Notes: generated by a model from the letters alone, not told the origin. A stretch of DNA of 28,792 nucleotides from a virus (IMGVR_UViG_3300020046_004077), one strand, 5' to 3'. Shown: positions 3-23,415, numbered from the stretch's first letter. Numbers and translations are program-made.

Positions 3-3000
3 GAACTTAGAATTAGAAGCTAGTTCAGCTATAAACTCTTTTGAGTTTGTTAGACCGTACTCACCTTGTACATCAGGAAGTTTAGTTGCTTCATTGAAGA
101 TCCTATCCAGATTTCTTACAAAGTTGATCTGTTCTTCTCCTTCCGGGTTCTGTATAACAGCTACAGAGAATGCGTGGTTTATTTCGTGTGTAAGAACGTG
201 GCGTAATTCCTTTTCAGATTCTACCGCTCCATTTCTATTAATTAAGATTTCACTTGCACCACTTTCTCCTTTGTAAATGAATTTACCAAAGTTGTTAGTC
301 CCAAGTGTACTATCCAGAATAATAGGTGTATTGATCTTACTTGAGTTCTTTAACAGAATTTCAAGATTTCTCAACGTTTCGGGATTGCTTTCGTCAAGCA
401 TCAACCGTTTGATCACAGAAGATGTTGCTTCTTTGTCAGTAGGTAAATAGAATCTCAGTCTTGAATCTATCTCTGAATTCACCCGACCAAATAAAGGACT
501 ACGCACAGTCAAGTTGTCCCCCCCTAGTCCCCAAGGGTCCGGATTGAGGTTCAATTTCCTGTTGCCTGGTGCCTTACTCTGACTACGTCCATCAGCAGAT
601 ACTTCATAGAAGTTGTTTCTTGACCCAAGAGGTTGTACTTCTCTAAAGTGAGACAGGTCTTTTGGATCAGCCTCATACAGTCTGTAATCTCCTAATTCAC
701 GATCATTAAATCTTATGAATTTAGGTAGTACTTCAGCTTCACTGTATTCGTCAGATAAGTAGAATTCAGTTATATGTCTTGTTCCGGAAGTTATCTTGGC
801 GTTCTTAATCATATTAGAGAAGAACCCTTTATCTTTCTGGAACTTACCGTATAGTTCAGGGAATCTGTCAAGATTCTTGAAGTTATGACGAATAAAGTTA
901 ACTACAGCAGCTTCCTGATCTATGTTCATAGAAGGAGCAGCTTTAATTATATTCTTCCATGCGTTATCTAATCCTGATTCTATCCAGAAACTAACCGGAA
1001 TAAGTTCAAACATGGATTTAGCATTAAAGTTAAACCCTGTTGTCATAATCGCGTAACGTATAAGGTCATGAGCCAACCCACGTACTTCTATGTTAGGGTG
1101 GTTAAGCATTTCATACCATCCGTTAGTTACTTCAGTCTTATTTGTATTGTTATCCGTGTTACGAATACCTACAATCTGTACTTGATCAACTCCTGTTTTG
1201 CTTGTCTCAAGATTTTTAATAAGTTCGTTGTTCTTGAGAACAGGGTGCTTATCTACCATTTGATCAATATACTTCCAGATACTCTTTTCTGCACTGAATA
1301 ATGACCAACGGTTTCTGTAATCTTCCTGTCCTTTTTGAGGATGGATAGCAATCAAGGTACGTGAGAGGAGACTATCTCCTTCCAAGTTATAGTAATCAAT
1401 AAACTGGTTAAGTTGTTTGATTAGACCTTTATCAGTAATGCTTGCTTGTCCTATATTCTCAGCATAAGCTGTTCTTACTTGTGAGTAAGCCATGCTGGTA
1501 GAAGGGAAGAATTGTCCAGTATAGGTAAGTGCATCTTGTATTCCGTGCTTAAAGAAGCTGGCAAGTCTCTTACCTACAGCTGGTGTTGTTGCTGTATCAA
1601 ATACTCTTGAGTCGATATATACTAAAGCTTCAGGATTAGTTACTTCATTTTTCTGTTGTAACATAGCTTCTAAGGCTTCTATTCCTGTAGCATCCTGGAA
1701 AGTATCTATTGAAAGTACATTGTTTATCTTTCCTAATTGCCCTGCAATTATGTTTGTTTTAATGAATTGATTTAACACCATAGCATCATGAGCAGGGTTT
1801 GCGTCTATAGCAGACTTTAACCCTTCTTTTAACGCCTCGGTACTAACTGTTTCATCTCTATCTAATATGTTGTACTGATCTTTAATAGCAGGATAGGACT
1901 CGAACAGCTTTTCAGTAGCCTTACGACTATCCTGACCTTCCTGCTTGTAGAATTTAGTCCATTCCCTTACTACAGGCTGCATGAAGAAGTCTGTAATAAC
2001 AGGTAATGGTACCCCAAAGTCAATCATTGTATGGAAACTAGCCATTGTTCCAGTAACTACACCTAAATAAGCCAGCAAGGGGTTTTTAGCCGCATCAAGA
2101 GCTGCTTGTTGACTTTCAGCATGGTTCTCTGAAATTAGTGTTCCTGAAGCGTCAAAGGTACGCCCAAGCTCATTGAACTTATACTTTTGGTCAATTGTAA
2201 TACCTATTTCAACATTTACACCAATAAAGTCTTTAATTGTCTGTAGTACTGTGTGACCAGTATTAAATCTGGACGCAATACCAATCTCAGCTTTACCGTC
2301 CTTGTTACGAATCTCAGCTTTAACATCAGCTTGTGTTGAAGCTACACTGGAACTTGTACCTAAGTCTATAAGCCCCATTTCCTGATATTCTTTAAATTTA
2401 GCTTCAAGTGTAGGGCTGGCAAGAGGAGTAAGTAATTCTTTTGTATGAGCTTTGTTTGTTAAGATTCCCCAGTAGATATTGAATAACTTAGTATCCACAC
2501 TCTCGCTATCAATCTTTCCTTCCTTATCTGTAACTCTGCGTAGTAATTGTGACTTATCAACGTCAAAGTCAAGACCTTGTTGAATAGTTAATTCTCCCGG
2601 AATAATAACTACGTTGTTGAGGTTACTTGGTACAATCTTCACTACCCTTACAGGAATCATTGAACTCTTGTTGGAAGTAGGGATACGGTATAGAATGAAT
2701 TGTAGAGCTTTCTTCTGGTTCTCTGTTAATTTATCCCAAATAATACGTCCATTAGGTAGTATATTATCACCGTAACGTAATCCTATCTGACCTAAATTGT
2801 CAAGGGGTAAAGCTATCTCAGCTTCAGTTAATTCACCTTCGTTGTTTGTGACAAATTTTAATTCGTCATCATATCCAACTCCAAAGTCTGCAAGGTTAAT
2901 AGCAGAATATCCTGGGCTGTCTTGTCCAAGAACATTCTTTTTCCATAAGTTAGTCAAGATAGACTGGAACTTCTGTCCAAATGCAGGGAAGGAAATAGGA

Positions 3001-6000
3001 ACAGCAAAGTCGATTTCGTTATTAACTGCTCTTACTAATTCAAGTACATCCTGGTAGTTTTCATTCAAGTCTCTTGACATCAGCTCCTGTTCCAGAGTTG
3101 TTTTGAGTTTAAACAGCTGTTCTTTTCTCTTAGCTTTATCGTCAGATAATTTGAATTCCTTTCCTACTCCAAGTCGTTTTTGTAAATTACTTGCCGAGGC
3201 TTGTATCTTTTCTTCCCATAATTCGTTGTACTTCTCTTTTAAAGTACTACCAAGCATAGATGTACTTCCTACTTTGTACATAGTCTTGTCGTCTATGTTA
3301 CCAAGTATGAGTTTGTGGAACTGAGTACCTTTAATATCAGTCTTCTTCTTGTCAGGAATAAGTTGCGGGAACCTGAAGTCAGACAAGTTAACTACCCTTT
3401 TCTGCCAGTCCTGTACCGGCTGACTAATGTCATTAATTACTCCATATAACCCTACTTTAGTAGTATCTTCTGCTGACATGATACCAATGTTATTAGCTTT
3501 CATGAAAGCAAGAAGGTCTCTGAATCCAGAATGTATTTTAGTTAATTCTGGTGTAATTGGGGTAATAGAGTCTTTGAACTGTTCCTTTATGATCATAGTA
3601 GATCCATCAGGAAGAGTTATCTTTCTGTTGTTAAATTGGAATGGCTTGAAAGGTTGTAGTAATATCTTAGCAGCAGCACTACGCAGTCTTTTAGCTTGTT
3701 CCTCAGTAATTAATTCTTTATCTAATAATTGTCTTGTTGCATACCGTACAGTGATACCTTTGCTCCAAGCTAATTTGTAAAGACGTTCATGGTCCTTACT
3801 CCACTGTCCAAGACTTTCTGCAAGTACCTTGTAACTATCTATGTCCATTAAGGATTGAGCATCAGTTTTATTAACTGATTGATACTTTTCTGCAATACTC
3901 TTATCTCCAGCTAACTCAGCTAATGAATTCAGATATTCAGGAGTATTTACTTTCATCTGTTTAGCGTAAATACCTCTCGTTAAGGTTACCGGAGTTTCAC
4001 TGTAACCTTTAATACCAGGAGTTACAGTCTGATAAGCACGCTTGAAATAGTCATCAGGGCTTTTATAGAATGCAATGTCTCCCATCAGTACCTTGGAAAC
4101 TTCTAGTCTCCAAGCTAAATCGTTGTAGAAAAACTCCTCCAGGAATGCAGACAAGCTCTTTCTGTCAAGTATCTGAGTTGGTATTCTCTCACTTGTTACC
4201 TCACCTTTTTCATTAATGTTAATGATGTCGTTTTCTGCAAGGAAGCTTTTAAAAGCTGAGAATTCAGACTCAATAAAGTCCTCAATTATCTTCTCTGCTG
4301 TTTGTAGAGCTTTAGTGTATTCTTCTGTACTTATATCTCCGCTTGAAAGGGATTCTTTCAATTTAGGTACAGTATTTAGTCCAGGAATATAGATGAATCT
4401 TGATGAGTTCTTTAAGTTTGCTATATCTTTTGGTAATGCATTATCCTCATTAGCTGAGTTTTGGAACTTAGCTAATCTTTGGATACGTACTACCTCACTG
4501 TTCATTGTGCCTTTAAGAACAGTAAACAAGAAGTCTTTTGCTGCTTGAGTACCTTTCTTCTTAGGCAGGCTTATAATAGGTTGTTTAGTCTTATCTGCAG
4601 GTGTTCCTGTAAAGAAATATCCTTCACTTCCCCCATTATTGTAGAAGGTAGTGAATCTCATTATCATAGACTCAATCTCAGTCCTTTTCTCAAACGCTTT
4701 AGGATTATCCTCATTACGTCTGATTACAGAAGTAAAATTAAGGTCAATCTTGTCAGAGCTATTTTTGATAGCTTGTAAGAATTGATTATCTGAATAGAAT
4801 GAATCCTGTTCATAATAACTTACAACATCTTGTGGATTATTCTTGATGTTGTTGGCTAATTCTGTAAGGGCTGAAGGCCAGTTAATAGGGTTTTCCAGGT
4901 TACCTTCGTCATTTCTATAAGCTCCTCCACGGGAATCATCTATGTAAACTGAGCTTGTTTTAGCAAGGTTAGTTAAAAGACTTGAACCTTCAAAAGGATC
5001 CTTTCCTTCCTTAGCATTTAATAACAGTTGTTCTAATGTTCTGCTTCTTGTACCGAAGAACATGTTTTCAACTTTTCTATACTTAAAACCAGGATTAGGC
5101 AAAGCATCAAGCTCTTTCCACATTTGGTTAGGTACAGAAACTCCAAGCTCAGAAAGAATAGAGTTAAATTCATCTTTAACTTCAGTGTAAGGCAAATTAG
5201 CTTTCTTCTGTTTAGCGATGTAGAACTTATTCTTAAATGCCTCCAGTCTTGCAAATATAGCAGCAGCTTTCTTTGTATTTACAGTACCGTCTGTATCTAC
5301 TATTTTCTTACGAACTCCTTCCTCTCTCCATCTGTTATGGAGTACACGATCACTACTTGCACGGTCTGAGTCTATTGTTTTAGCAAAGTTCTCAATTCTG
5401 TGGGTAGCAAAAGGATTCTCAGGATCTATATCTGAAGGGTCATTCTTATCAATAGGAACTTTCTTAGTTCCGTGAAGAACTGTCTTTTTATAATAACCGT
5501 CACGTTTGTACTTAGCCGCAAACTCATTGAACAATTGTATGTTACCCTTGTTCTTTTCGTTCATTAAGGCATCCAGTACAACCTTAGCAATAGCATCGTT
5601 TTCAGCTAACTCTGTAAGTTTAGTAATAGGATTACTTGCATCTCTTAACTTAAGAGCCAGGTTTCCATCTACTCTCCTAAAGTCAAGGAATTTAGTTGTA
5701 CCAAAGACAGTTTGCTTATTCTCCCCGGTAGGCATTCCTGATTGATCCAATACTGGTTCAGGGATGCTTGCAAGGAATAGTTTAACCCTGTTACTCATTG
5801 ATTCACTAGGATTAATCAACGTATGATCAATGTCATACAGTCTTTCAGCCTCGTCCTGTGACTTTAGTTCTGCATTATCTACGCTTTCAGCAAACTCTTC
5901 TTGAGAGTTAGTGTAGGTTGAACCATCTTTTAGTCTAACACTAAATCCATATCTGCTTAAGTCTTTTAATACTTTAGTTCTGAATCCGTCTTCAGGTAAT

Positions 6001-9000
6001 CCTGTAGCTGTTGTAACATCTTCAAATGATCCAACAAAGCTCTCTTCTCCTGCAGAAGGAGTGCCTATTCCCATAGCGAGATAGCTATAATACCTGGCTT
6101 GGTCAACCTTACTTCTTTCTTTACTTCCTTTTATTCTTTCAAAGTCTTTCTCAAAGTTAGACTTGATTGAACCGAGGATAGCATCGAGGTTTTTAGGGTT
6201 AGTTAAGTATTCCCCAAGACTTACCTCTTCTTGTCTTGCCAGTTCCCCACTTAGTCTAATGACTTCAGAAGTCCAAGCTACAATACTTTCTTGTTGTTGT
6301 TTGATGTATCTGAAACCAGGTAGTTTCTTATAACGAGGTTCTGCAGGATCTAATTGCAGTTTAGCTTTCTCTTGAATAGCTTTTTGCTGTTCCAGAGACA
6401 AGTTTAGATTGTCGAGTTGAGCAAATAACTTTTCTACCGGAGTTTTAAATCCAAGTAGATTCTTGATCATCAGCCAAAGCTTCTTGAAGAAGTTACGTAC
6501 TGGTTCAGCAGGCTTATATTTGCCATCACTAAGTTTGTATTTCTCAAACTCCTCAGCAAGTTTCTCTTCTCCAATCTTATTGATCAACTCACTTTGCTTT
6601 TTTGTAACAAGTCCATTGCTTGGATCAGCAAAGAAGTGTAAAGCTTCGTGATAAGCTGTACCTTCAGGAGCAAATTCAGCTATTGTAACTAGCCCATTGT
6701 AGTATTGACCAAACGCAGCTATTCCATTCTTGGAAATGAACCTATCTACATTTTGAGCTACTTCAATAGCTTGCTCACCAATGTTATCTTTGAACCAAGT
6801 TAGTTCTTTCTCAGTAAGTAATTTAAAGCCTTGTTCCGTAGCTGGCTTAAGCTTAGCATCAGGACCGAAGAAATCGTCTAAAGCTTTATCTGGAGTAGTA
6901 TCTATTTTTCTCCCCTTTAAGTTAGCTGCTAAATTGTGTTCAAAGATCTTAATGATTATAGGATCTGTTACTTCTTTGTTTTTGTAGTCAAACCATTTAC
7001 CATTTTCTTTGTAGAACTGCCCTTCACTTGTATTTACACTATACTTTTCTCTTCTTATTTCAACATCTAGAGATTCAATTCTATCTCTTAAATCCTTCTC
7101 TGTGCCTATTATGTTTGTAATAACAGGTTCATCATTCTCCTCTACTAGAGTAAATTGAGATTCTTCAATGTTTGGATCAAGATATAGAGCCACTTGGTTA
7201 AAAGAGTAGCTGGAATCTTCACCAACTCCCATAGTTTTAGAACCTGGAAGATTAGTCTGCACAGATGAAGTTTCAACCAAATAATCATAGTACGTATTAT
7301 AAGCCTTGTTTGTAACAGGGTCTGTATATCTTATTTCTGAGTTTAAATTAGTTACTGGTACATTCTTGAACTGTTTAGAAAGCAGTTCTTTGAATTTAGT
7401 TGTTATTTGTCCTTGTCCTGCATGGTTATAAAATACTTCTGATTTATTACCATCAGGAGTCATCACTCTAAACGCATAAGGTTTAGCAGCTAACATTTCT
7501 CCTACCTGTTTAGAGTCAACAATAACCCATACAGGCTGAGTTCCTTTAACAGGAATAAGTACATCTGCTGTATTTGCAGTTGTATTAACAATGTGTATTC
7601 TTGATCTATTAAGTTCAAGCACATCAGGCTTTTTATCTCCTTTTGTAGAGTATACTCCAGCAGAGTGTTGAGGTAAGTAAACTACATTATTTAGAGTAGT
7701 AAAGTCTTTTGAAACCAGTAATTGAGCTATGTTATTATTTAACCAATCAATTTCAGTTTGGTTAAGGTTTCTGGGCTCAAGTCCAATAATACGCTTACTT
7801 CCGTCAGGGGCTGTTCTGAATGTAATTACCTTACCTCTGAGTTTAGCTAAGTCATTTGATCTTGGAACAATCTGAGTATTGTTTACCTGATCTATTACAT
7901 TCTTGGTAATACCTTTCATCGCTCCAATATTTGGAGTTGTAATATTACCATTGAAATCTATGAATCCAAGAATAGGCTTGTGTGCAGTATTCTCAAACTT
8001 CCACTGTTCTTCGTTTACTTGTACGTAATCACTCTTTAAAATATCTAAAGAGTTTAGGGTAGAAGACTTACGGATAGTACCTACATTCTTACTAGCTATA
8101 CGGGTTTTTACTTCCCCTCTTGCTATTACTTCATTACGTAAGTAAGTTATAACTCTTTGATCTGCCAGCCTTGGATTATCAGCAGAAGGTAGTTGTTTAA
8201 TAGGACGTGGGTTTCCTTCTACGTAAACATTAATTACATAGTTTTCTACTTTATCCGGTTTAAATCCTGGAGTTAATGTCCAAGGAAAATCATTCTCAAG
8301 CTTTAAAATAACCTGTTGTCCAGCAAGAACCTTTGGGGTGTTTGCAAGTAACTGTCCTGTTTCAGTATCTACAGCAAAGATCTTGTCTGCGGTAGCGGTT
8401 TCACCTGTAATATTGTTAGTATAAACTGTAGCTGAACCATCTTCATTTACTTCTTTTAACCAAGCTGGAACAGTTGTTCTTTGTCTTGATTCTTCAGCTT
8501 TCTTGTCTTTCTCAGCTTGCTGTGTGACTACAGGAGGAACTTCTTTTTTCTGTTCAATTTCTATACGTTCAAGAATAGAGGATACCTGTTCTTTAGTCAA
8601 TCCTCCCCAACGGGTAGCTTGTTCAGGAGTAATTCCTCCTGCAAAAGGTATTTCAATAGGAGCAGAATCGTCTACTGGAGGAGCTTCCATTTCAGGAGCA
8701 TACTCTGACTCTGTAGGAGGTTCAACTAATACTTCTTCACTACTTGGTATTGGAGCTGGAGGTTCTTCTACAAACTTCTTTGTTTCCTCTTGGTTAGCTG
8801 CTTTTTTTGAATCAACTAAAGCTTGGTGCTTTTGAGCTAAAGCTGTCTTTAGTGCTTCATCTGTAGTATTAGCTGCAGCTTGCAGAATTTCTTCTTGCTT
8901 AGCATCAGGATTATTTAGAACAGCTTTAGCTTGTTCATTTACTTTTCTTGTTTCAGCTTCTTTCCTTGCTTTAGCTATTCCTTCAGGAGTAGTTAACTCA

Positions 9001-10781
9001 GCAAGGTTCTTTTTTACGGCAGCTTGTTTCTCTTTAGTTGAAACTAATTGAAAGGTTTTAGAGAATAGATCGTTATCCCTACTAGTTGTAAGTGCTTCGT
9101 TGAGATTAGGAAATCCTAACTCTCCAGACATCTTTAACTGGTCATAAGCTTTTTGTATCTCCGCAACTTTAGGTTGGAATTGATTATTTGTTGAGGCAAG
9201 TTTTTTATACGCCTCGAGGTTGGCTTGAGTTTGCTTAAGGTTAACTAACTCGCTGGGAAGCTCTTTGTTGTTGACTAATTCTTGTTCGATCTCACGAAGT
9301 TCATTTGTTAACGCGTTATCCAGTCTACCTAACTGGCGCTGTTCGAGCTTTGTTGCAAGAACTCGTTCATGTACATCAGCAGGTAATTTACTGGCTTTTA
9401 ACTTAGCTTGTTCGTCAGCAATAAAGTCTATATCCTGGGTATAATTATCCAAGTTCTGTCTAACTTCAGGGGTTAAGTTTTTTGAAGTTTTTAACGCTTC
9501 TAACTCCTGTTTGTAGTTTGCAAGTTTTCCTTCTTTTAATTTTTGAAATGCTGTTTGAGCAAACTGTACATCATCTATTGTCTGGGAAGTAGCTGTATCT
9601 CCAACATAGTTAGCTCTTTCTTTTTTAAGACCTAGATCAACTATGTTTTTTACTTGTTTAGATACAATATCAGCTACCCGGCTAGAACCTTTTTCAGCAG
9701 CTCTGCCTAACGGTCCAGCGGCTGTGAATACTCCACCCCCAAAGGCCCCAAGTAATGTTGAAGCTTTAAATTCAGGGTCGTTGATGTATTCGTACAAGCG
9801 TTGATTGAATCCTTTACCGAAGTAATCGGTTTCAGTATCCATTGCTGCACGGTAAGCTTCTTCACCTACTATGAACTGCCCTGCTTCTTCTGCTCCTTCA
9901 CTAGCTGTCTGTGTAGCTATCTCTGCAATACTCTTTCCAATACCCCCTTTAGCTGCGGTAGAAAACCCTTTCAACATACTAGAATATTGCAAGAAGTCTT
10001 GCATAGCGAATATCCAGTTAGTGTTCCATACGTTAGAAGCCTGTTGACCAGCACGCATTCTAGCAACTTCAGGACTTATTCCTTTATTTAGCAGATCTGT
10101 GTAAGCCCGTTCATAAACTGCAGAAGCTTCCATTGTGGATTCTGCATACCTTGAAGCTAGTGTTGCTCCAACTCCTTGAGCTACTTTAGTCGCTCCTTCT
10201 CCCATTTTAAGAGCTCTTGCACCTTTCCCTACTAACCCAGCAACTCCGGCTGCAGGAAGCATAAGAGATAGTGCAGACCCTATTGTATCTGGAGTATGTG
10301 AGGCCCACCAAGTAGCGTCTCCAGGAGCAAATCCTTCACGGCTTTCTGCAGTTTGAAATACTTTTAATGAGCTATCTTGAGCTATACTTTCTTTAGCTTG
10401 TTTCATTGCGTCTGCAAGCCAGTTTGTATACTCTGCTTCATCTCCTTTTAACTTGTCAATCATTTGCTCTACGTCTAACAGATAAGAGCCTGCTTCTACA
10501 GTCCCAAGGATAGCGTTAGGAATAGCTTGTCCAATAGTCTTTCCTATTAGTTCAAGGCCACTTTGCTGTCCAGCCATGTAGTTTTCCAGATCAGCTTGGG
10601 CAATATAATTCTTAGATAGTCTTGGACTTTCTGTAGGTTGTTGAGTGGGATTTGGTAAACTTGGATATTGTTGACCAAATCCTGGGGCTAATGCTTTCTT
10701 TTTCTTTGGATCCCCTGGGTCATCTCCTCCTATGGGAGCTAAAGGTTTTAATTCTTCTCCAAATCCTGGTGCTAATTCCAT
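3..10781 (-). CDS. Giant virion RNA polymerase polyprotein (crAss-like two-barrel vRNAP, phi14:2 gp66 type) with two zincin domains; >=3593 aa, 3' end beyond the window
   Basis: The ATG at 10781 overlaps the upstream TAA (TAATG) and begins MELAPGFGEELKP. Hand translation found no stop down to base 3, and the ORF track reports no terminated ORF in this frame. In-frame motifs: GDIAFYKSPDDYFKR (~4040-4083), NKTDAQ (3855-3872), YRIPT (2676-2690), catalytic GLDFDVDK (DFDVDK 2553-2570, first Asp = residue 2738), LDAAKNP (~2079-2099), HEALH (6636-6650), HEINH (174-188). Confidence 0.92.
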   Translation of the reverse strand, partial: MELAPGFGEELKPLAPIGGDDPGDPKKKKALAPGFGQQYPSLPNPTQQPTESPRLSKNYIAQADLENYMAGQQSGLELIGKTIGQAIPNAILGTVEAGSYLLDVEQMIDKLKGDEAEYTNWLADAMKQAKESIAQDSSLKVFQTAESREGFAPGDATWWASHTPDTIGSALSLMLPAAGVAGLVGKGARALKMGEGATKVAQGVGATLASRYAESTMEASAVYERAYTDLLNKGISPEVARMRAGQQASNVWNTNWIFAMQDFLQYSSMLKGFSTAAKGGIGKSIAEIATQTASEGAEEAGQFIVGEEAYRAAMDTETDYFGKGFNQRLYEYINDPEFKASTLLGAFGGGVFTAAGPLGRAAEKGSSRVADIVSKQVKNIVDLGLKKERANYVGDTATSQTIDDVQFAQTAFQKLKEGKLANYKQELEALKTSKNLTPEVRQNLDNYTQDIDFIADEQAKLKASKLPADVHERVLATKLEQRQLGRLDNALTNELREIEQELVNNKELPSELVNLKQTQANLEAYKKLASTNNQFQPKVAEIQKAYDQLKMSGELGFPNLNEALTTSRDNDLFSKTFQLVSTKEKQAAVKKNLAELTTPEGIAKARKEAETRKVNEQAKAVLNNPDAKQEEILQAAANTTDEALKTALAQKHQALVDSKKAANQEETKKFVEEPPAPIPSSEEVLVEPPTESEYAPEMEAPPVDDSAPIEIPFAGGITPEQATRWGGLTKEQVSSILERIEIEQKKEVPPVVTQQAEKDKKAEESRQRTTVPAWLKEVNEDGSATVYTNNITGETATADKIFAVDTETGQLLANTPKVLAGQQVILKLENDFPWTLTPGFKPDKVENYVINVYVEGNPRPIKQLPSADNPRLADQRVITYLRNEVIARGEVKTRIASKNVGTIRKSSTLNSLDILKSDYVQVNEEQWKFENTAHKPILGFIDFNGNITTPNIGAMKGITKNVIDQVNNTQIVPRSNDLAKLRGKVITFRTAPDGSKRIIGLEPRNLNQTEIDWLNNNIAQLLVSKDFTTLNNVVYLPQHSAGVYSTKGDKKPDVLELNRSRIHIVNTTANTADVLIPVKGTQPVWVIVDSKQVGEMLAAKPYAFRVMTPDGNKSEVFYNHAGQGQITTKFKELLSKQFKNVPVTNLNSEIRYTDPVTNKAYNTYYDYLVETSSVQTNLPGSKTMGVGEDSSYSFNQVALYLDPNIEESQFTLVEENDEPVITNIIGTEKDLRDRIESLDVEIRREKYSVNTSEGQFYKENGKWFDYKNKEVTDPIIIKIFEHNLAANLKGRKIDTTPDKALDDFFGPDAKLKPATEQGFKLLTEKELTWFKDNIGEQAIEVAQNVDRFISKNGIAAFGQYYNGLVTIAEFAPEGTAYHEALHFFADPSNGLVTKKQSELINKIGEEKLAEEFEKYKLSDGKYKPAEPVRNFFKKLWLMIKNLLGFKTPVEKLFAQLDNLNLSLEQQKAIQEKAKLQLDPAEPRYKKLPGFRYIKQQQESIVAWTSEVIRLSGELARQEEVSLGEYLTNPKNLDAILGSIKSNFEKDFERIKGSKERSKVDQARYYSYLAMGIGTPSAGEESFVGSFEDVTTATGLPEDGFRTKVLKDLSRYGFSVRLKDGSTYTNSQEEFAESVDNAELKSQDEAERLYDIDHTLINPSESMSNRVKLFLASIPEPVLDQSGMPTGENKQTVFGTTKFLDFRRVDGNLALKLRDASNPITKLTELAENDAIAKVVLDALMNEKNKGNIQLFNEFAAKYKRDGYYKKTVLHGTKKVPIDKNDPSDIDPENPFATHRIENFAKTIDSDRASSDRVLHNRWREEGVRKKIVDTDGTVNTKKAAAIFARLEAFKNKFYIAKQKKANLPYTEVKDEFNSILSELGVSVPNQMWKELDALPNPGFKYRKVENMFFGTRSRTLEQLLLNAKEGKDPFEGSSLLTNLAKTSSVYIDDSRGGAYRNDEGNLENPINWPSALTELANNIKNNPQDVVSYYEQDSFYSDNQFLQAIKNSSDKIDLNFTSVIRRNEDNPKAFEKRTEIESMIMRFTTFYNNGGSEGYFFTGTPADKTKQPIISLPKKKGTQAAKDFLFTVLKGTMNSEVVRIQRLAKFQNSANEDNALPKDIANLKNSSRFIYIPGLNTVPKLKESLSSGDISTEEYTKALQTAEKIIEDFIESEFSAFKSFLAENDIININEKGEVTSERIPTQILDRKSLSAFLEEFFYNDLAWRLEVSKVLMGDIAFYKSPDDYFKRAYQTVTPGIKGYSETPVTLTRGIYAKQMKVNTPEYLNSLAELAGDKSIAEKYQSVNKTDAQSLMDIDSYKVLAESLGQWSKDHERLYKLAWSKGITVRYATRQLLDKELITEEQAKRLRSAAAKILLQPFKPFQFNNRKITLPDGSTMIIKEQFKDSITPITPELTKIHSGFRDLLAFMKANNIGIMSAEDTTKVGLYGVINDISQPVQDWQKRVVNLSDFRFPQLIPDKKKTDIKGTQFHKLILGNIDDKTMYKVGSTSMLGSTLKEKYNELWEEKIQASASNLQKRLGVGKEFKLSDDKAKRKEQLFKLKTTLEQELMSRDLNENYQDVLELVRAVNNEIDFAVPISFPAFGQKFQSILTNLWKKNVLGQDSPGYSAINLADFGVGYDDELKFVTNNEGELTEAEIALPLDNLGQIGLRYGDNILPNGRIIWDKLTENQKKALQFILYRIPTSNKSSMIPVRVVKIVPSNLNNVVIIPGELTIQQGLDFDVDKSQLLRRVTDKEGKIDSESVDTKLFNIYWGILTNKAHTKELLTPLASPTLEAKFKEYQEMGLIDLGTSSSVASTQADVKAEIRNKDGKAEIGIASRFNTGHTVLQTIKDFIGVNVEIGITIDQKYKFNELGRTFDASGTLISENHAESQQAALDAAKNPLLAYLGVVTGTMASFHTMIDFGVPLPVITDFFMQPVVREWTKFYKQEGQDSRKATEKLFESYPAIKDQYNILDRDETVSTEALKEGLKSAIDANPAHDAMVLNQFIKTNIIAGQLGKINNVLSIDTFQDATGIEALEAMLQQKNEVTNPEALVYIDSRVFDTATTPAVGKRLASFFKHGIQDALTYTGQFFPSTSMAYSQVRTAYAENIGQASITDKGLIKQLNQFIDYYNLEGDSLLSRTLIAIHPQKGQEDYRNRWSLFSAEKSIWKYIDQMVDKHPVLKNNELIKNLETSKTGVDQVQIVGIRNTDNNTNKTEVTNGWYEMLNHPNIEVRGLAHDLIRYAIMTTGFNFNAKSMFELIPVSFWIESGLDNAWKNIIKAAPSMNIDQEAAVVNFIRHNFKNLDRFPELYGKFQKDKGFFSNMIKNAKITSGTRHITEFYLSDEYSEAEVLPKFIRFNDRELGDYRLYEADPKDLSHFREVQPLGSRNNFYEVSADGRSQSKAPGNRKLNLNPDPWGLGGDNLTVRSPLFGRVNSEIDSRLRFYLPTDKEATSSVIKRLMLDESNPETLRNLEILLKNSSKINTPIILDSTLGTNNFGKFIYKGESGASEILINRNGAVESEKELRHVLTHEINHAFSVAVIQNPEGEEQINFVRNLDRIFNEATKLPDVQGEYGLTNSKEFIAELASNSKF

Positions 10782-12574
10782 TATTTCAATTTAAGTTGTA
10801 CTCCTTGTTCTGCTAATGTTGAAGCTAAGTGGCGTGGAGAAGAGAATAACATTGTTTTTCCATTTATCTCAGCTTCTATAAGTGTAGTTACGTTTGCCCA
10901 CTGTTCTTGGGTTAAGCCGTAGTCTTGTTGTGCTTTTTCTAACTGTTTACCGTACAGTTCTCTTGCCTTAATACCAGGAGCTAATTCTGTTAGTTGTCCG
11001 GGTCTTGTGTTTACAGTAGTATAAATTTTGTTCTCGTTTATGTCAACAGCATCTGTGTAGAATCCTCCCGGTAATTGACTTGCTAAGAACCTACGAGCAT
11101 TACCATCCTTATCTACAGCTACTACTGCAAAAGGTTTAACAAACTTCTCATTTCCTGCAGGGTTAGTTGTATAGTGGTTTTTTGGATCATAAACTGACTC
11201 TACCATAAACTTGCTTGGATCTCCTCCAGTAAGCTCTTTAAATTCATCAGTCATTTCTCCATCTTTACCTATTGCTGCGACTACTTCTCCTGTTTGAGGA
11301 TCCATATACTCCCGAAGAGCAAACTGAGCTTGTAGTTCTTTATTGAACTCAGTAGCTTGTTTAGCGTCAAAAGGAATAACCCAAGGATTACTTACACGTT
11401 GTTTGATGAGATCTGTGTAATCTGTAATCTTAGCGTTGGGACCGAATATTTCTTTTGCTGTATTCAGGTCTTTTACATATTGAGGGTGTTGTACGTCATC
11501 TTTACCTTTAGTAGAGCTTGTTACAATATCTGCACCCTTTCCAAATCTGTAGATAGGAGCTGTACCTGTAACTACTCCCTTTGTTTTATCTACTCCAGTA
11601 GATTCATTGTAAGGAATTTCACTTTCTACAATCTGAGCCGGGGCTTGAGTAGGTAATTGCATAGCAGTAGTTTTACCTGAACCACCATCATCACTTCCAG
11701 CCCATGCTGGAGTAGGTTTGTAATCTCTACTTAAATTCGTAAAGGTTCTGAGCAATCCCTGGTTATAGAATTCCTTCTTCAATTCATCATCAGACTTTCC
11801 TAAGATATTCTTTTGCTGTTTATAAGCTGGAGTTAGCTTATAACTTGACCAAGCAGAACCTAATAGTTTATCAATCTTTCCCTGACTGATCCCAGCTTTG
11901 GTAAGAGATTCAAAGAATAGAGGTAAATCGAGTTGACCGTTTTGGTATGCTCCTGGTAATAGTTTGGAGATTGTAGTATCTCCTGCTGCCCTGATTGCTG
12001 TTTCTATAGAATCAGGATTAACTGTTTTCCAGATGTTTTCCATGTGGGGAACAGGATCTTCATAAGGTTCTACTGTGCTTTGGTAAGGAGTAGCATAAAC
12101 TGAAGTAAGCTGACCAGTTTCCGGATCAATCACATTTGAGTTCATAATTGCTTCTCTTACTCCCGGTTTACGAAGAGGTTGTTTACCTTGAGCAAGGAGG
12201 GCTTGCTCTAACTTAATTTCTTCGTTTACTCTTTCGGCTTGTTGGAGTCCTGTGAGGATTCCTTGATCACTTTGTAATGTAGTCGCAAGAGCGTTTATTC
12301 TAGCAGTGGAGTTTTCTCCTCCTCCTGCAGCCATCTCTTTCAAGGCTTGATCAATAGCGGTGATGTGGGTGTCTACGTAGCTCTTTGCCCCAGGAAGCAT
12401 CTTAGACTTCATCTGGTTAGCTAGAATCTCTAGTTGACTAGCATTGGCTAAGTTCTGATAGTGTCTCTGGGATAGAGTATCTGCAGTTTGTCTGATCTGA
12501 TCCAGAGGAACCCCTGCATATTGAGGGATATATTGACCAGAATCTAAGTTGAAATCGTTGTAGGATAAAGGCAT
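10781..12574 (-). CDS. Putative ejection/cargo (internal virion) protein, 597 aa
   Basis: Long ORF with a Q/A-rich helical N-terminal half and an N-terminal YIPQYAGVP motif of the kind I recall from crAss-like cargo proteins. It lies between the first cargo gene and the vRNAP and is coupled to the vRNAP by TAATG. Function is inferred from synteny. Confidence 0.62.
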   Translation of the reverse strand: MPLSYNDFNLDSGQYIPQYAGVPLDQIRQTADTLSQRHYQNLANASQLEILANQMKSKMLPGAKSYVDTHITAIDQALKEMAAGGGENSTARINALATTLQSDQGILTGLQQAERVNEEIKLEQALLAQGKQPLRKPGVREAIMNSNVIDPETGQLTSVYATPYQSTVEPYEDPVPHMENIWKTVNPDSIETAIRAAGDTTISKLLPGAYQNGQLDLPLFFESLTKAGISQGKIDKLLGSAWSSYKLTPAYKQQKNILGKSDDELKKEFYNQGLLRTFTNLSRDYKPTPAWAGSDDGGSGKTTAMQLPTQAPAQIVESEIPYNESTGVDKTKGVVTGTAPIYRFGKGADIVTSSTKGKDDVQHPQYVKDLNTAKEIFGPNAKITDYTDLIKQRVSNPWVIPFDAKQATEFNKELQAQFALREYMDPQTGEVVAAIGKDGEMTDEFKELTGGDPSKFMVESVYDPKNHYTTNPAGNEKFVKPFAVVAVDKDGNARRFLASQLPGGFYTDAVDINENKIYTTVNTRPGQLTELAPGIKARELYGKQLEKAQQDYGLTQEQWANVTTLIEAEINGKTMLFSSPRHLASTLAEQGVQLKLK

Positions 12575-12628
12575 AAACCAGTTTTGTATTTACTCCAAAA
12601 GTTGAGGAGTAAAGGTAACTGGTTTATG
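12572..12628 (-). promoter_or_regulatory. Bipartite stem-loop covering the start codon of the 597-aa gene
   Basis: A perfect 12-bp inverted repeat (12572-12583 / 12617-12628) encloses a perfect 8-bp inverted repeat (12589-12596 / 12606-12613). mRNA sense: CAUAAACCAGUU ACC UUUACUCC UCAACUUUU GGAGUAAA UACAA AACUGGUUUAUG; the final AUG is the start codon. Confidence 0.72.
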
Positions 12629-12641
12629 TTATACTACCAAA
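12610..12641 (-). promoter_or_regulatory. Probable Bacteroidota-type sigma-A promoter (TTTG-N20-TACCTTTA)
   Basis: TTTG at 12641-12638, a 20-nt spacer, then TACCTTTA at 12617-12610, one mismatch from the TAnnTTTG -7 consensus. It lies in one of only two real intergenic gaps and has the same spacing as the element at 23377-23408. Confidence 0.5.
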
Positions 12642-12650
12642 TTTTAGGGC

Positions 12651-14249
12651 TTATTTCTTAATATTGAGTTTTCCACCTTTACGCTTCCCTTGCTTGGAGT
12701 ATTTCTCCAAAGCTGCCATAGCTTCAGGGCTGAGGCGGGAAAGGACATTAGAGTCCCCGTAGGCTTGTTTCATAATTTCAAGAGCTTCAGAATCACGCTG
12801 CATCTGGTTACGTTCCCGTCCAATCTGCAGTATTTTACCTGATAAGTTAGATACGTTTTCAGAGGATAATTGAAGTTTCTTGTTCTGGAAGTTTACAACA
12901 CTGTCCTGGAAGTCATTAATTCTTCCCGCATTTCTAGCTTTCACTCCTTGGTTAAGACCAGCTTGTTGATTCTGTATAGAAGTATTAATCTGGTTAGTTT
13001 GACCGTAGACTTGATTCTGACCGGCTACCCGTTTAGCCATCAGGTTTCCAATAGAAGAAGCTAAATTACTACCTTGGCTAGTGTTGGAAGTAATAACTTC
13101 CTTGGCTTGATTATAAGCCCTATTCACATCAGCTAATTGAGCGTTTGGATTTATCTTTTTCAGTTGTACAGCACTTTCCAGTTGTGGAGCTTTTGGTCCC
13201 TTTAGTCTTTTTTGAAGTAAAGCATTATTCAAGTTTGGTCCAAAAGTAGCTGCAGTTGTAAGTAGAGGTTGCATGTCAAACGGCTTGTTTTGAACCTGTA
13301 CATCAGGTCTTAATGTGTCTATCGTACCGTAGGGATTGTTTTCATCTAATTTTCCTCCCACTGCTTTTGAGGGTTTTTTAGCCTTAGCCATATCTTCTGC
13401 GTCTAATTGTCTAACAACTTGTTTTCTTATCTTCTTGTATGCTTTATCTAAGTATGCTTCCCGATCTACTCCGTAAGGTTCTTTAGTTTGTAATACAGAG
13501 TCCCACTTATTTAGCATTCTTTCAGTATAGTTTCCTGTTGGAGAGTAAGTTGGTTTTTTCTTAGTCTTTGGTCCTGGATCACTCTTTAAGCCCTCCTGGT
13601 AGTCAAATAAGCTATCTAGCTTTTGTCCTATTCTTTCGTTAGATTCAAGAAATCTTGGATTATCACTTTTCATCTTCTCCAGTCTTTTAGCTTCTTTAGC
13701 AATTGAACGACCGGAAGGTAGAGTAAGGTCATCAGAGAATACTCTATTCTCTTTATCTATTATCTCGTTGTTATCTACAAAAGCTGAATCTAATTCAACA
13801 CTGTCTGTAGCATTTGGATTGTTTGCTACAACTTCTACAGCATCTTCTGAAACTGGGTTTAGATCACCTCCCCCAACAAGATTAAGTTTATTCTTTAACT
13901 TACCTCCTTTAGCTAATTGTCTTCCTGAATTAGAAATAAGGTTCTCTTGTAACTGTAGTGTTTGTAGTCCTTTTTGTTCGTCTTTGATCTCAGCGAGTTG
14001 TTCCTGTTCTTTGCGTTTTGCTCTACCTCCAAGTATTCCTCCAAGCAGACCGCCTGCAACAGCTCCTATTGGGCCCAGCGCCAGACCTGCTCCAGCTCCT
14101 TTTAAAGCTCCTCCAATTGCAGCTCCGCCTACTCCTGGTGTATTAGCACCGATCAGGCTTCCTGCCAGGAGAGTTCCTTGTTGTAGAGGTTTTCCGTATT
14201 GGTCTAAGAATCCTCCGTCTGCTTTTTTCTTCTTTTTCTTACCTTGCAT
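12651..14249 (-). CDS. Cargo/ejection protein (crAss cargo protein 1-like), 532 aa
   Basis: It has a Gly/Ala-rich hydrophobic segment (residues ~25-76), an ENRVFSDDL...SIAKEAK block resembling the VFSD motif of crAss-like cargo proteins, and a Q/N-rich coiled-coil C-terminus. It directly follows the muzzle gene with an 11-nt overlap. Confidence 0.66.
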   Translation of the reverse strand: MQGKKKKKKADGGFLDQYGKPLQQGTLLAGSLIGANTPGVGGAAIGGALKGAGAGLALGPIGAVAGGLLGGILGGRAKRKEQEQLAEIKDEQKGLQTLQLQENLISNSGRQLAKGGKLKNKLNLVGGGDLNPVSEDAVEVVANNPNATDSVELDSAFVDNNEIIDKENRVFSDDLTLPSGRSIAKEAKRLEKMKSDNPRFLESNERIGQKLDSLFDYQEGLKSDPGPKTKKKPTYSPTGNYTERMLNKWDSVLQTKEPYGVDREAYLDKAYKKIRKQVVRQLDAEDMAKAKKPSKAVGGKLDENNPYGTIDTLRPDVQVQNKPFDMQPLLTTAATFGPNLNNALLQKRLKGPKAPQLESAVQLKKINPNAQLADVNRAYNQAKEVITSNTSQGSNLASSIGNLMAKRVAGQNQVYGQTNQINTSIQNQQAGLNQGVKARNAGRINDFQDSVVNFQNKKLQLSSENVSNLSGKILQIGRERNQMQRDSEALEIMKQAYGDSNVLSRLSPEAMAALEKYSKQGKRKGGKLNIKK

Positions 14250-17200
14250 ATCTGTACATCATATTAGTCTCCAGTAACAGGAAGCGGTTGTTAACTACGT
14301 TATCGTATTCGAACCTGCAAACTACATATTTATCTGTAAATTTGCGCTGGTCATACCACTCCATGTTTGTATTAAGCTTTGTAGGATCAATTGTAAAATC
14401 CTGGTAAAAACCAAATAGGAAACCGGGGCTTATTACATAATCTCTAATATCGTTGAAGTACCATGTTCTGGTAACATTTCTAATACTTGTAGAGTAGAAT
14501 GAGTCAAGTTCTGTGTATCTTGACAAGCTTATCCTTCCTGTACAGTGGTCTGCAGAACGTAATGTTAAATGGGTACAAGTAGTGTTATAATCGTAGCTAG
14601 TACTGTATTGTCCTTCAATCATACCTTGAGGGTAAGATTCAGATACCCATTCAAGAGCAGCAAATTGTTTATTCTCCGCAGGTTCTGGGTTAAATACAGC
14701 GTCTACGTAAGATGAATAAATAGTATCTCCGTAGTATCTGCCTTTCTGTATAGAAGCTTCCGGAACAGGATTGTTCAAGTAGAAGATATTATCTTTTATT
14801 GAATATAGGTTGTTATCTGCCGTATTGAACATGTAATCCGGAGTGTAATCGTGGAAAGAAGTCCAGGTTCTCTTAGATGGGTTATAGCTTAATGTCCATG
14901 ATTCATCACCGTTCTTTTTAGAGACAATAAGCCTATTCATTCTTTCATCATAAGCCGATGTATAACCATTTGAAGTGAATGGATTATCTTCATTTACACC
15001 CATGAAGTCACGAAAGAAAGCTCTCATTCCATTAGATGATATTTCCTGCAGCTGTTCCCCATCATACAAGAAATACTTTCCTGTCTTGTCGTCCGGAAAT
15101 ACGTAGCCTAACTTAGTCATAACACAAGCGAACTTATGTTGTGTTCCTGCATAGTTTGGTACTGGTTCTTCAGGAGCTAACTGGAATAGGTTAGAAGATT
15201 GAAAGAATACGTTTTCTTCCTGAGCTTCTACTTGAATATCTGTTCTTGTTCTGAAGAAGCTATCTTGTGTGTGGATTATTAACTGCTTGTTCTTGAAACC
15301 TTGCAAGTTAGTTATATCTCCCCTGTTACTACCTATTACTACTCTATCACCAGCTTTGAACACACTCCAAGAGAATTCCTCAGATTCTTCATTCTGTACT
15401 TTAGAGTAAACAATTGTGTTAGGGAATTCTGTCTGATTTATAACATCGGGGTGTTTAATAACTCCTACCGTATAAGTATTTGAAGCGTTGTAATCTTCTG
15501 TATACATTACTTGGTTAACAGGACTATTTGTATCAATGAGTGATCTAATATCAATATCTGTTTTAGGAAAAGGATCATCCTCAATGATAACAGAGTATAG
15601 AGTTCTTACATCTACCTTACCGTGGTAGTAAGTTGATAAGTTACCTGTTTCCTGGTAGCGGTAGTTAAAGTTGTATCTTGAATAACCTACATACGCTTTC
15701 CAGGCTCTTACTCCTTGGGTAGTTCTTTTTACATCTATGTTGTCTGCATCTGTACTTCTTGGCCCAGCTGATAAATAACTCATGTAACAAATGTAAGAAT
15801 CTCCTCCGTAAATAGAGGATAAACTTGTATCTGTTGGTTGTCCGTATTCTCTTGTTGGAACTAAATCTTGTGAGTTAAATGAGTTATGGACTGAAGAGAG
15901 AAGACTGAAGTATTGCATGTACATAGTATCCTCTTTTCCGTTATCCGGATCAGAAGTACCATCAAACTCTTCAAATTGTTCAGTGGGGCCTGTTGTATTA
16001 GCTGCGGCCATGTGCAATCTTGTAAATTCCAGGCTACTGAATGAAGATCCCGGACTAATAGTTGCTGCAAATACTCCTTCAGAACTCTGTGTTTTTACAG
16101 TATCATCCAAAGCGTTTTCCGGAACATATCTAAAGTTATCTAACCGTTTGATAAATGGAGTTATGTTAGTTCTTGTGGTTTGGGTTGGTACAGTGTAATC
16201 TACAACCATAGAAGCCACATAACTTTCGTTCGCTTGCCCGTCTGTTATGTAACCTCCAGCTATTGTTATTGTACCACCCTCACTCCTGAAACCTGAATAA
16301 GATTCATTAAGATTCTTTCTTCTTAGTTTATAAAAGAAGTTTGCGTAGGTAGGAGTGACAGAAGCTGTGTTAAATAGCATGTCCAAACTGTGTCCACGTA
16401 TACTGTCAGTTTCAACATCAGGCATTTCTCTATTTGTACCACTTTCTTCAAACTCTGTTCTCCAATTTCCACCTGATGACCATCTGATGTTTGGATCATC
16501 TGTAGGAGAAGTACTGAATTGTAGTAAATCACTTCCTTGTACCAAAGAGTTTTGTGGATCTTTCTTAGCGAAGAAAATCTTCCATCTGGAAATGTTTTCC
16601 TGTATCTCTGTTGGAATGTTTACGTTACTTACGTTAATACCTAATACAGGTAAAGCACTCACTCCAAATGTAGAGAATCCTGAATATGTATCAGCTAATT
16701 TACCTGCAGTAGGAAATCTGTGGTGTCTTACTGCAAGTCCTCTTAAATCCCCGGCTAATGAACCTACAAATGAGGGATCGTTAGGGTATGTTTCATTACT
16801 ATTTTCCCAGTAGCCCATGTTGGAGTAGCCTCCTCCAGCATTGGTTGTGTTTTCTACCTGAAATCTTTTATACGTAATTCCCTCATCTGTTACAGTTTGT
16901 GTTTCTGTACCAACAGCAGCTCTTCCTGGAATGTGGTAGAATGCCCAACCACCTTTCTTTAATTCTACTCCAAGGTAGAAAGCATATACTTCTCCAGGCA
17001 TGAAGGTTGGAGGAAGAACATCTTTGTGTGTTCCTGTGTTACTTATTACTGAAGTTAATGAAGCAGTGTAGTCTATCTTTATATCCAAAGCTGCAGCTTG
17101 CAGATCCGGTAGGTCAGGAGAAGTAAGGTTTCCCAAATACAGCCTTCCTGCTAATTGAGTAATAGCTTTTGCATTGTTGTATATAGCTGTAGGAGTTAGC

Positions 17201-18039
17201 ACCTCATCTATTGCTACTTCAGTTGCTGTTTCATTTCCTGTTATTGTAATAGAAAGTGTACTGCTTGTAGTGCGTTCAGGTAGTTTGTAAGCTCTTACTA
17301 TACCATCTATTATTGAAATGTAACCTACAGTAATCGAACTGAAATTAGTATCAACTCCTGTTAATGTAAAAGTAACAGACTTATTTGAAATGGTTCCTGG
17401 CTCAGCTCCATCGTTTTGGTTAAAAGCAATTGACTTACTATCGTCATTTATAACAAAATTAAAGTCGTGTACAAACCAACTAGTAGATGGTTGTTCATCG
17501 CTGCTATACTGAGTTATAGGTATTAGAGTTCCTGTAGGCAGGCTACCTCCTGTATCATTAATAACAGGCGAGATGAGTGTAGGGTTTTGAATGTCGGGGA
17601 AAGTATCTAAGTCTGAGATGTTGTTAATATCACTTAAGTTGTCTATATCCAGTATTCTTGGACTGTTAATATCGTCTATCCACGCAACTACCCTTCCTCC
17701 TGTTGCTCCCTTTCTGTACTCTCCTTTTATAGGAGCAGAAGTACTGAAGTTGAGATCAGGATCGTTATAGATTTGTGTATAATTGAGAGTAGACCCGGTT
17801 CTTGTAATAAGTCCTATTTCTGAGTCAGTATCATCTGTAGAAAAGACTACAAAATCATTTCTAACCGGAATTACTCCTATGAGAGTATAGGGAGTTAGTT
17901 CTTCAAATTGTAAGAATCCATCCTCGTTTTCCAAACTACCAAGCATGTTAGAATCAACCATATTCTTAGCGAATCGGTAGGTTCCTTGAGGTTGATCCTT
18001 TTCAACACAATCGGTGTATAGTCCTTTAATTAATTGCAT
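14239..18039 (-). CDS. Tail muzzle / tail stabilisation protein (P22 gp10-like, crAss Tstab), 1266 aa
   Basis: The N-terminus KGLYTD...PQGTYRFAKN resembles the G(M/L)xxD...PxGxYxxAxN start of this family. It has beta-propeller-like segments (RLYLGN, WTSFHDYTPDY), the expected size, and sits just before the cargo genes. Confidence 0.75.
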   Translation of the reverse strand: MQLIKGLYTDCVEKDQPQGTYRFAKNMVDSNMLGSLENEDGFLQFEELTPYTLIGVIPVRNDFVVFSTDDTDSEIGLITRTGSTLNYTQIYNDPDLNFSTSAPIKGEYRKGATGGRVVAWIDDINSPRILDIDNLSDINNISDLDTFPDIQNPTLISPVINDTGGSLPTGTLIPITQYSSDEQPSTSWFVHDFNFVINDDSKSIAFNQNDGAEPGTISNKSVTFTLTGVDTNFSSITVGYISIIDGIVRAYKLPERTTSSTLSITITGNETATEVAIDEVLTPTAIYNNAKAITQLAGRLYLGNLTSPDLPDLQAAALDIKIDYTASLTSVISNTGTHKDVLPPTFMPGEVYAFYLGVELKKGGWAFYHIPGRAAVGTETQTVTDEGITYKRFQVENTTNAGGGYSNMGYWENSNETYPNDPSFVGSLAGDLRGLAVRHHRFPTAGKLADTYSGFSTFGVSALPVLGINVSNVNIPTEIQENISRWKIFFAKKDPQNSLVQGSDLLQFSTSPTDDPNIRWSSGGNWRTEFEESGTNREMPDVETDSIRGHSLDMLFNTASVTPTYANFFYKLRRKNLNESYSGFRSEGGTITIAGGYITDGQANESYVASMVVDYTVPTQTTRTNITPFIKRLDNFRYVPENALDDTVKTQSSEGVFAATISPGSSFSSLEFTRLHMAAANTTGPTEQFEEFDGTSDPDNGKEDTMYMQYFSLLSSVHNSFNSQDLVPTREYGQPTDTSLSSIYGGDSYICYMSYLSAGPRSTDADNIDVKRTTQGVRAWKAYVGYSRYNFNYRYQETGNLSTYYHGKVDVRTLYSVIIEDDPFPKTDIDIRSLIDTNSPVNQVMYTEDYNASNTYTVGVIKHPDVINQTEFPNTIVYSKVQNEESEEFSWSVFKAGDRVVIGSNRGDITNLQGFKNKQLIIHTQDSFFRTRTDIQVEAQEENVFFQSSNLFQLAPEEPVPNYAGTQHKFACVMTKLGYVFPDDKTGKYFLYDGEQLQEISSNGMRAFFRDFMGVNEDNPFTSNGYTSAYDERMNRLIVSKKNGDESWTLSYNPSKRTWTSFHDYTPDYMFNTADNNLYSIKDNIFYLNNPVPEASIQKGRYYGDTIYSSYVDAVFNPEPAENKQFAALEWVSESYPQGMIEGQYSTSYDYNTTCTHLTLRSADHCTGRISLSRYTELDSFYSTSIRNVTRTWYFNDIRDYVISPGFLFGFYQDFTIDPTKLNTNMEWYDQRKFTDKYVVCRFEYDNVVNNRFLLLETNMMYRYAR

Positions 18040-23358: not shown

Positions 23359-23376
23359 ATTTCTTAGTTTAACTTA

Positions 23377-23408
23377 CAAAGATAATAAGTAGTTTTATTA
23401 CCTCCAAA
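23377..23408 (-). promoter_or_regulatory. Bacteroidota sigma-A promoter (TTTG-N20-TATCTTTG)
   Basis: TTTG at 23408-23405, a 20-nt spacer and TATCTTTG at 23384-23377 form an exact match to the -33/-7 consensus TTTG-N19-21-TAnnTTTG. It is intergenic and ends 18 nt before the ATG at 23358. Confidence 0.8.
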
Positions 23409-23415
23409 TTTATTT

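Follow-up and report, generated by a model that had tools for sequence, protein, structure and literature searches.

One short intergenic gap in the genome studied here may bear on how crAss-like phages set the amount and the timing of the RNA polymerase that they inject. The stretch analysed, called the window below, comprises 28,792 nt (28.8 kb) of the viral genome IMGVR_UViG_3300020046_004077, which has 92,763 bp (92.8 kb) in all. Its large open reading frames (ORFs) all belong to the minus strand and follow one another with hardly any space between them; only two gaps occur in the 28.8 kb, at 23359-23415 and at 12575-12650. The second gap (76 nt, minus strand) directly precedes a gene of 597 amino acids (597-aa), which is followed by the gene of the giant virion RNA polymerase (vRNAP). 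We consider it about evenly probable that this gap is a compact insulator and translation switch, in which a promoter of the host sigma-A type is interlaced with an RNA hairpin, and the element would then be a mutable control point before these two genes.

What does the gap contain? The original prediction, made on the window alone, had placed here a stem-loop of 12 plus 8 bp that pairs the AUG of the 597-aa gene, and RNA folding confirmed it. On the minus strand, the outer stem consists of 12 bp with 100% complementarity: its 5' arm CATAAACCAGTT (12628-12617) lies in the spacer of the promoter, and its 3' arm AACTGGTTTATG (12583-12572) has the ATG of the 597-aa gene (12574-12572) as its last three bases. 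The inner stem of 8 bp is formed by TTTACTCC (12613-12606), which shares bases with the -7 box and also takes up promoter positions -4 to -1, and GGAGTAAA (12596-12589), and it closes a 9-nt loop (12605-12597). Two further segments of 4 bp extend the pairing, and the whole structure predicted for a read-through transcript (12637-12560) has 28 bp in four helical segments. The minus-strand fold of 12641-12557 reached -28.4 kcal/mol (z-score, z = -6.4), and none of 200 dinucleotide shuffles was as stable; folding on a second range gave z = -5.5. The outer stem is the only perfect inverted repeat of at least 12 nt with a spacer in the window. In the read-through fold, the AUG has a predicted paired probability of about 1.0, and the 597-aa start is predicted to be the second most occluded of the 95 gene starts in the genome, with a mean unpaired probability of 0.27 vs a median of 0.57. 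Rfam covariance models gave only two chance-level matches (E = 0.43 and 0.52), both far below the gathering scores.

The hairpin is not alone in the gap, and the near-consensus promoter that the original prediction had placed over its 5' arms was likewise borne out as a sequence motif. The Bacteroidota sigma-A consensus has TTTG at -33, a spacer of 19-21 nt and TAnnTTTG at -7. The gap holds a -33 element TTTG (12641-12638) and, 20 nt after it, the -7 box TACCTTTA (12617-12610), so that TTTG-N20-TACCTTTA agrees at nine of ten positions with the Bacteroidota consensus. The -7 box also takes part in the pairing, with its first T as the closing base of the outer stem and its final four bases at the beginning of the inner one. 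Because the -7 box spans -12 to -5 in Flavobacterium psychrophilum (PMC9723704), we infer an active promoter with a start at 12602-12606 and +1 at 12605, in keeping with the start near 12604-12606 that had been proposed. Position 12605 is the first base of the loop; therefore, an RNA born at this promoter would lack both 5' arms. Its predicted leader has 31 nt and is A-rich at -8 to -17, and the predicted mean unpaired probability from -12 to +15 around the ATG is 0.26 in read-through RNA vs 0.65 in promoter-born RNA, which fits the claim that the shorter transcript leaves the AUG free.

Would a longer transcript reach the gap at all? A putative late promoter with a 10/10 match, TTTG-N20-TATCTTTG, lies upstream at 23377-23408 (minus strand) and is the likely source of read-through RNA. 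No canonical terminator was found between this promoter and the gap at 12575-12650, and read-through is thus plausible. Across the whole genome, 17 of the 71 promoter matches of at least 9/10 are intergenic, about twice the expectation, given that intergenic DNA makes up 11% of the genome. Gene-oriented matches occur in most minus-strand gaps of the virion module (genome positions 52240, 63024, 75210, 78463 and 88550) and also, at 91247 and 92175, close to where the module starts. Other gaps of the late module, for example 23359-23415, have the promoter and no hairpin; in that gap, the promoter sits 18 nt before an 80-aa gene, whose leader TAAGTTAAACTAAGAAAT has TAAACTAAGAA in common with the leader in the genome gap 78463-78537. 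Contigs from the wastewater "RNA-Seq" runs X7, X8, X9 and X15 bridge the gap before the 597-aa gene, and these runs, flagged as probably DNA, are uninformative on RNA starts and ends. Among public reads, no RNA data set was listed as containing the phage, which is abundant at activated-sludge or freshwater sites.

Put together, these features suggest how the switch could work. Read-through RNA from the tail/muzzle operon would carry both arms of each stem, and the 28-bp structure would bury the start codon of the 597-aa gene together with its A-rich leader. Since ribosomes of Bacteroidota have no Shine-Dalgarno anchor and depend on an open leader, initiation on this RNA would be expected to fail. 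RNA from the embedded promoter (starting at about 12605) would have lost both 5' arms and would be translated from its open 31-nt leader. The vRNAP start overlaps the stop codon of the 597-aa gene, which would place vRNAP under the same control. The embedded promoter alone would then determine how much of both injected proteins is made, and perhaps when.

Is the arrangement kept in relatives? The 597-aa protein has 37 homologues, and the DNA was compared for 17 distinct loci, the window included (numbered with L below). Searches of phage collections with the gap region and with the 597-aa protein, at nucleotide and protein level, found nothing; a scan of IMG/VR with the 597-aa protein alone returned one weak locus, and a scan of genome contigs gave no match. 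The start codon of the 597-aa gene is secure, as the N-terminus MPLSYNDFNLDSGQYIPQYAG is conserved in 17 homologues, and a gap before this gene is kept in all 17 loci. Directly after the upstream stop codon, TTTG/CTTG-N19-21-TAnnTTTN is found in 12-13 of the 17 loci, although the flanks can no longer be aligned, and the -7 box keeps the form TAnnTTT[G/A/C]. In one of the relatives, L010, the annotated start of P0007 is 63 nt too late: the conserved N-terminus MPLTYDNL starts at 2438, which gives a gap of 77 nt, like the others.

In most relatives, the hairpin that accompanies this promoter has another look. Eight loci (L007, L010, L011, L013, L016, L017 and L020, all outside the window's clade, and the clade member L004) have a hairpin whose first base is at most 1 nt away from the end of the -7 box, with a G/C-rich stem base at -5 to -1 of the promoter. 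These hairpins fold at -9.6 to -13.3 kcal/mol in full and at 0 to -4.6 kcal/mol from the predicted +1. Downstream of six of them (L007, L010, L011, L013, L016 and L017), 5-7 of the next 8 nt are T, and these six look like intrinsic terminators by their sequence; of the remaining two, L004 covers the ATG with its 3' arm, whereas in L020 this arm stops 2 nt short of the ATG. In L012, terminator and promoter follow each other in the usual order in a longer gap. As an alignment with MAFFT left the terminator hairpins out of register for a single bracket string, compensatory changes were counted with a script anchored on the AAA(C/T):GTTT core in seven hairpins (L016 was not aligned), and pairing was found to be kept at five flanking positions by two or three pair types, plus G-U pairs. 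The sense strand folds better than the antisense strand in six loci, which together with the G-U pairs points to RNA rather than to DNA. The pairs of the window's own hairpin are all Watson-Crick, so that sense and antisense energies do not discriminate there. In nearly all relatives, the short sequence (C/T)TGGTTTA and the TAAAC that pairs with it are found again in stems and just before start codons (12575-12581 in the window), and the motif is present even before the endonuclease gene inserted in L021.

The window belongs to a part of the family in which the start codon itself is covered. In the protein tree, the window forms one clade with L003, L004, L005 and L009 (support 95/98), at 54-80% identity to the 597-aa protein and with L007 and L010 as sister, and each of the five members has its own ATG-covering stem, differing in sequence. 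In the window, the spacer sequence ATAAACCAGT pairs with the bases just before the ATG (z = -6.4), while the spacer sequence GTCGAGGGG of L003 pairs with codons 2-4 (CCC CTC GAC; z = -5.1). In L004, GGGC right after the -7 box pairs with GCCC after the ATG (z = -3.2), and in L005 and L009, ATAAACC(T/C)ATAG pairs with ATG GGT TTA T (z = -3.6 and -4.6, respectively). Predicted accessibility of the start in read-through and promoter-born RNA is 0.31 and 0.59 in L003, and 0.24 and 0.77 in L005. Each of the four closest relatives thus keeps an ATG-covering stem, which favours the original prediction. For the sister lineages, we propose that the same job would be done at the level of transcription, with read-through RNA terminated at the hairpin and its U-run, and with promoter-born RNA starting inside the stem and escaping termination.

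Several other explanations of the gap have to be weighed against the insulator and translation switch, and the relatives bear on most of them. Because six relatives have a stem with a U-run where the window has its hairpin, directly behind the -7 box, the hairpin of the window could also be mainly a terminator or a 3'-end stabiliser for the tail/muzzle operon, and the overlap with the ATG would be a by-product of a very short gap. The high stability of the window's stem, the TTTAT 2 nt after it and the canonical terminator that L012 also has in this gap agree with that. Nevertheless, the stem in the window is followed by CCUUUAUCCUAC and no U-run, and the predicted structure runs on into the ORF without a U-tract after it. 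The combination of a G/C-containing stem and a U-run that marks an intrinsic terminator is absent here (the tail is CCUUUAUC), and a terminator scan does not list the site, while the other terminators of the genome are canonical, with runs of T5-T10. Moreover, all five clade members have lost the U-run and gained pairing of the ATG, which looks selected rather than incidental, and we regard a terminator or 3'-end stabiliser in the window as rather unlikely. The helix between the two cistrons, whose roughly 28 bp are stacked coaxially and interrupted by small internal loops, also invites comparison with a site for RNase III or another double-strand-specific RNase, where cutting would separate the mRNAs and free or destroy the start region. 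Intercistronic RNase III sites of phage T7 resemble such a structure. The hairpins of relatives at the same place, however, have 10-12 bp and are too short for RNase III, and cutting would leave the tie of the 5' arm to the -7 box in every lineage unexplained, so that this explanation appears improbable.

Still more improbable, in our view, is that the inverted repeats form an operator in double-stranded DNA, at which a phage or host regulator bound across the promoter would time the vRNAP operon. The repeats do extend over spacer, -7 box and start, where repressors usually bind, and the core TAAAC...GTTTA is common to most relatives; against it, G-U pairs are kept in the sense strand, which folds better than the antisense strand in six loci, six relatives have U-runs after their hairpins, the outer half-sites of the window are 33 bp apart, and those of L003 differ completely in sequence and reach into the ORF. 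The G-U pairs in relatives point to sense-strand RNA, and they also left without support the side proposal of the original prediction that the element is a DNA hairpin recognised by a phage enzyme. We give slightly less credence yet to chance, or to a neutral leftover of an ancestral terminator with no present function. It is true that the ATG-covering form occurs in only five loci, but these have z of -3.2 to -6.4 and different stems all aimed at the ATG, the promoter is conserved, and the gap is one of only two among the tightly packed genes of the 28.8 kb. Least probable of all seems a promoter-proximal attenuator, with a start upstream of the stem and a hairpin that stops or blocks transcription unless a phage antiterminator or RNA-binding factor acts, like lambda Q at PR'. 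The position of the terminators in relatives, at most 40 nt from the promoter, would suit it; by the -7 rule (PMC9723704), however, each of the eight box-adjacent hairpins has its predicted start 4-5 nt within the stem, and in the window this start lies beyond both 5' arms, so that the full hairpin could not form in promoter-born RNA.

A number of observations weigh against the insulator and translation switch itself, to which we give about an even chance. The -7 box has A and not the consensus G at -5. Within the clade, L004 has no predicted gain in start accessibility (0.48 in read-through and 0.42 in promoter-born RNA) and L009 only a small one (0.31 and 0.40). In the RNAalifold consensus fold of the five clade loci, not one pair is common to all, since their stems do not occupy homologous alignment columns, and the support from the clade is therefore recurrent re-creation of the same occlusion (structure turnover) and not classical covariation. 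Flavobacterium phage Fpv1, the nearest cultured relative by its muzzle protein, has neither the element nor an equivalent gap; the nearest cultured relatives by this protein are phages of F. psychrophilum, with 25% identity and without this gap. The copy numbers of the tail, cargo and RNA polymerase proteins of crAss001 differ only about two-fold (PMC10172136), and by this analogy, the motive for a separate control of dosage is weak. As for timing, the upstream promoter at 23377-23408 likewise belongs to the host sigma-A type. Both RNAs may therefore be late, and nothing here resembles the separation of early from late expression at T4 gene e, which leaves the role in timing claimed by the original prediction unsupported. 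On the favourable side, late crAss genes are thought to use the host RNA polymerase, and the timing of vRNAP genes in crAss001 differs from that of the genes next to them (PMC8375218). In the part of the literature on crAss-like phages that we covered, there is no report of start-codon occlusion or of mapped late promoters. The original interpretation as a whole is therefore partly supported: it held on all points that comparison of sequences can test, and found no support on timing.

What, then, is the conserved role? Because the equivalent hairpin in most relatives looks like a terminator, the conserved role looks like insulation from upstream expression and not specifically like a translation switch. 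Across the family, what the compared loci indicate is a boundary that would stop upstream expression, with a new promoter just before the gene pair. With somewhat less than even confidence, we suggest that within one family of environmental crAss-like phages a promoter-embedded hairpin, with the start inside the stem, has been re-tooled between terminating upstream transcripts and, in the clade of the window, covering the AUG. If this is true, phages of Bacteroidota would have a general way to build an insulator in very little space, and nature would have provided an experiment on how start-codon accessibility alone controls translation in a phylum without Shine-Dalgarno pairing. The natural variants, in terminator form and in ATG-covering form, could be swapped in reporters, and since the mRNAs of Bacteroidota have no Shine-Dalgarno sequence, translational control by structure alone could be tested cleanly in this way; an insulator part of 60-100 nt is potentially useful for Bacteroidota genetics.

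The genes around the gap are those of a virion module. The minus-strand order in the window is ring protein (PF24228), muzzle protein (14239-18039, PF25731), a 532-aa gene that is the last of the tail/muzzle operon (12651-14249), the 597-aa gene (10781-12574) and the vRNAP ORF (3-10781), which runs off the window and encodes 4625 aa in the whole genome. In crAss001, the order is muzzle gp44, cargo gp45, cargo gp46 and RNA polymerase gp47 (PMC10172136); the order from the muzzle gene to vRNAP in the window is the same, with the 597-aa gene at the position of gp46. Searches of Pfam, PHROG and PDB gave no match for the 597-aa and 532-aa proteins, and we call them cargo-2 and cargo-1, respectively, by gene position alone, in analogy to crAss001. 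The stop codon of the 597-aa gene overlaps the vRNAP start as TAATG (10779-10783), as the original prediction had stated, and the junction is TAATG or a spacer of at most 6 nt in all 17 loci. Because this is conserved across the family, translational coupling of the 597-aa homologue and vRNAP is likely everywhere, as far as the junction sequences indicate.

Some further observations on these loci may be recorded. In Fpv1 (L023, NC_031914.1), just 28 nt (4841-4868) precede the 4401-aa vRNAP gene, and they include a consensus -7 box TATATTTG at a distance of 20 nt from the ATG; it may thus be common for the vRNAP gene to have a host-type promoter of its own. Two separate lineages have ORFs of GIY-YIG homing endonucleases (L021:2079-2489 and L019:~1500-1989) inserted in the gap that immediately precedes the 597-aa homologue, and L013, a close relative of L021, has no insert; the gap thus looks like a recurrent landing site. 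In L002/L003 (3-911), a relative with 80% identity, the gene at the cargo-1 position is split into ORFs of 247 and 54 aa, by a frameshift or an assembly error, and the split is present in two independent assemblies of the same sequence.

The mechanism that we propose is not itself new: the promoter-in-hairpin arrangement of T4 has been in textbooks since the 1980s, and the window's element, taken by analogy, would be a further case of the T4 e/soc type. In T4, start-occluding hairpins with an embedded late promoter are found at genes e, soc, 49 and I-TevI (PMC3014915), and the comparison with these genes drawn in the original prediction was apt. In T4, a helix sequesters the start in longer transcripts, and a promoter in the 5' part yields a translatable RNA without that arm; in the window, a predicted stable helix likewise takes in the start codon, and the embedded promoter motif would have the corresponding effect. 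However, T4 uses its own late promoter (gp55) to separate early from late expression, whereas both promoters here look like the host sigma-A type; T4 hides a Shine-Dalgarno sequence, whereas here there is none and the AUG with its A-rich leader would be hidden; and the effect in the window is predicted from sequence.

The promoter-early stem-loop (PeSL) cassettes of phages RB49 and phi1 (PMC2839356) resemble the element in layout and isolate a downstream gene from upstream transcription, as we propose for the window. They are, however, present in many copies per genome, have sigma-70 promoters and drive gene shuffling, whereas the window's element is single-copy, its arms being unique in the 92.8-kb genome, and it lies in a conserved virion module, has a Bacteroidota-type promoter and covers a start codon in place of carrying a U-run. 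Promoter-coupled terminators of bacteria (bioRxiv 10.64898/2026.08.19.745784) also bring termination and the next initiation within the same few tens of bp, but in those, transcripts end some 10 bp ahead of the following start, and the T-tract of the terminator is at once part of the promoter, whereas in the window's element the promoter boxes come first and the predicted start falls inside the stem. Closest in the family itself are the intrinsic terminators of L007, L010, L011, L013, L016 and L017, with a stem and 5-7 T in 8 nt, from which the element of the window differs in that it does without the U-run and ends its stem on the ATG.

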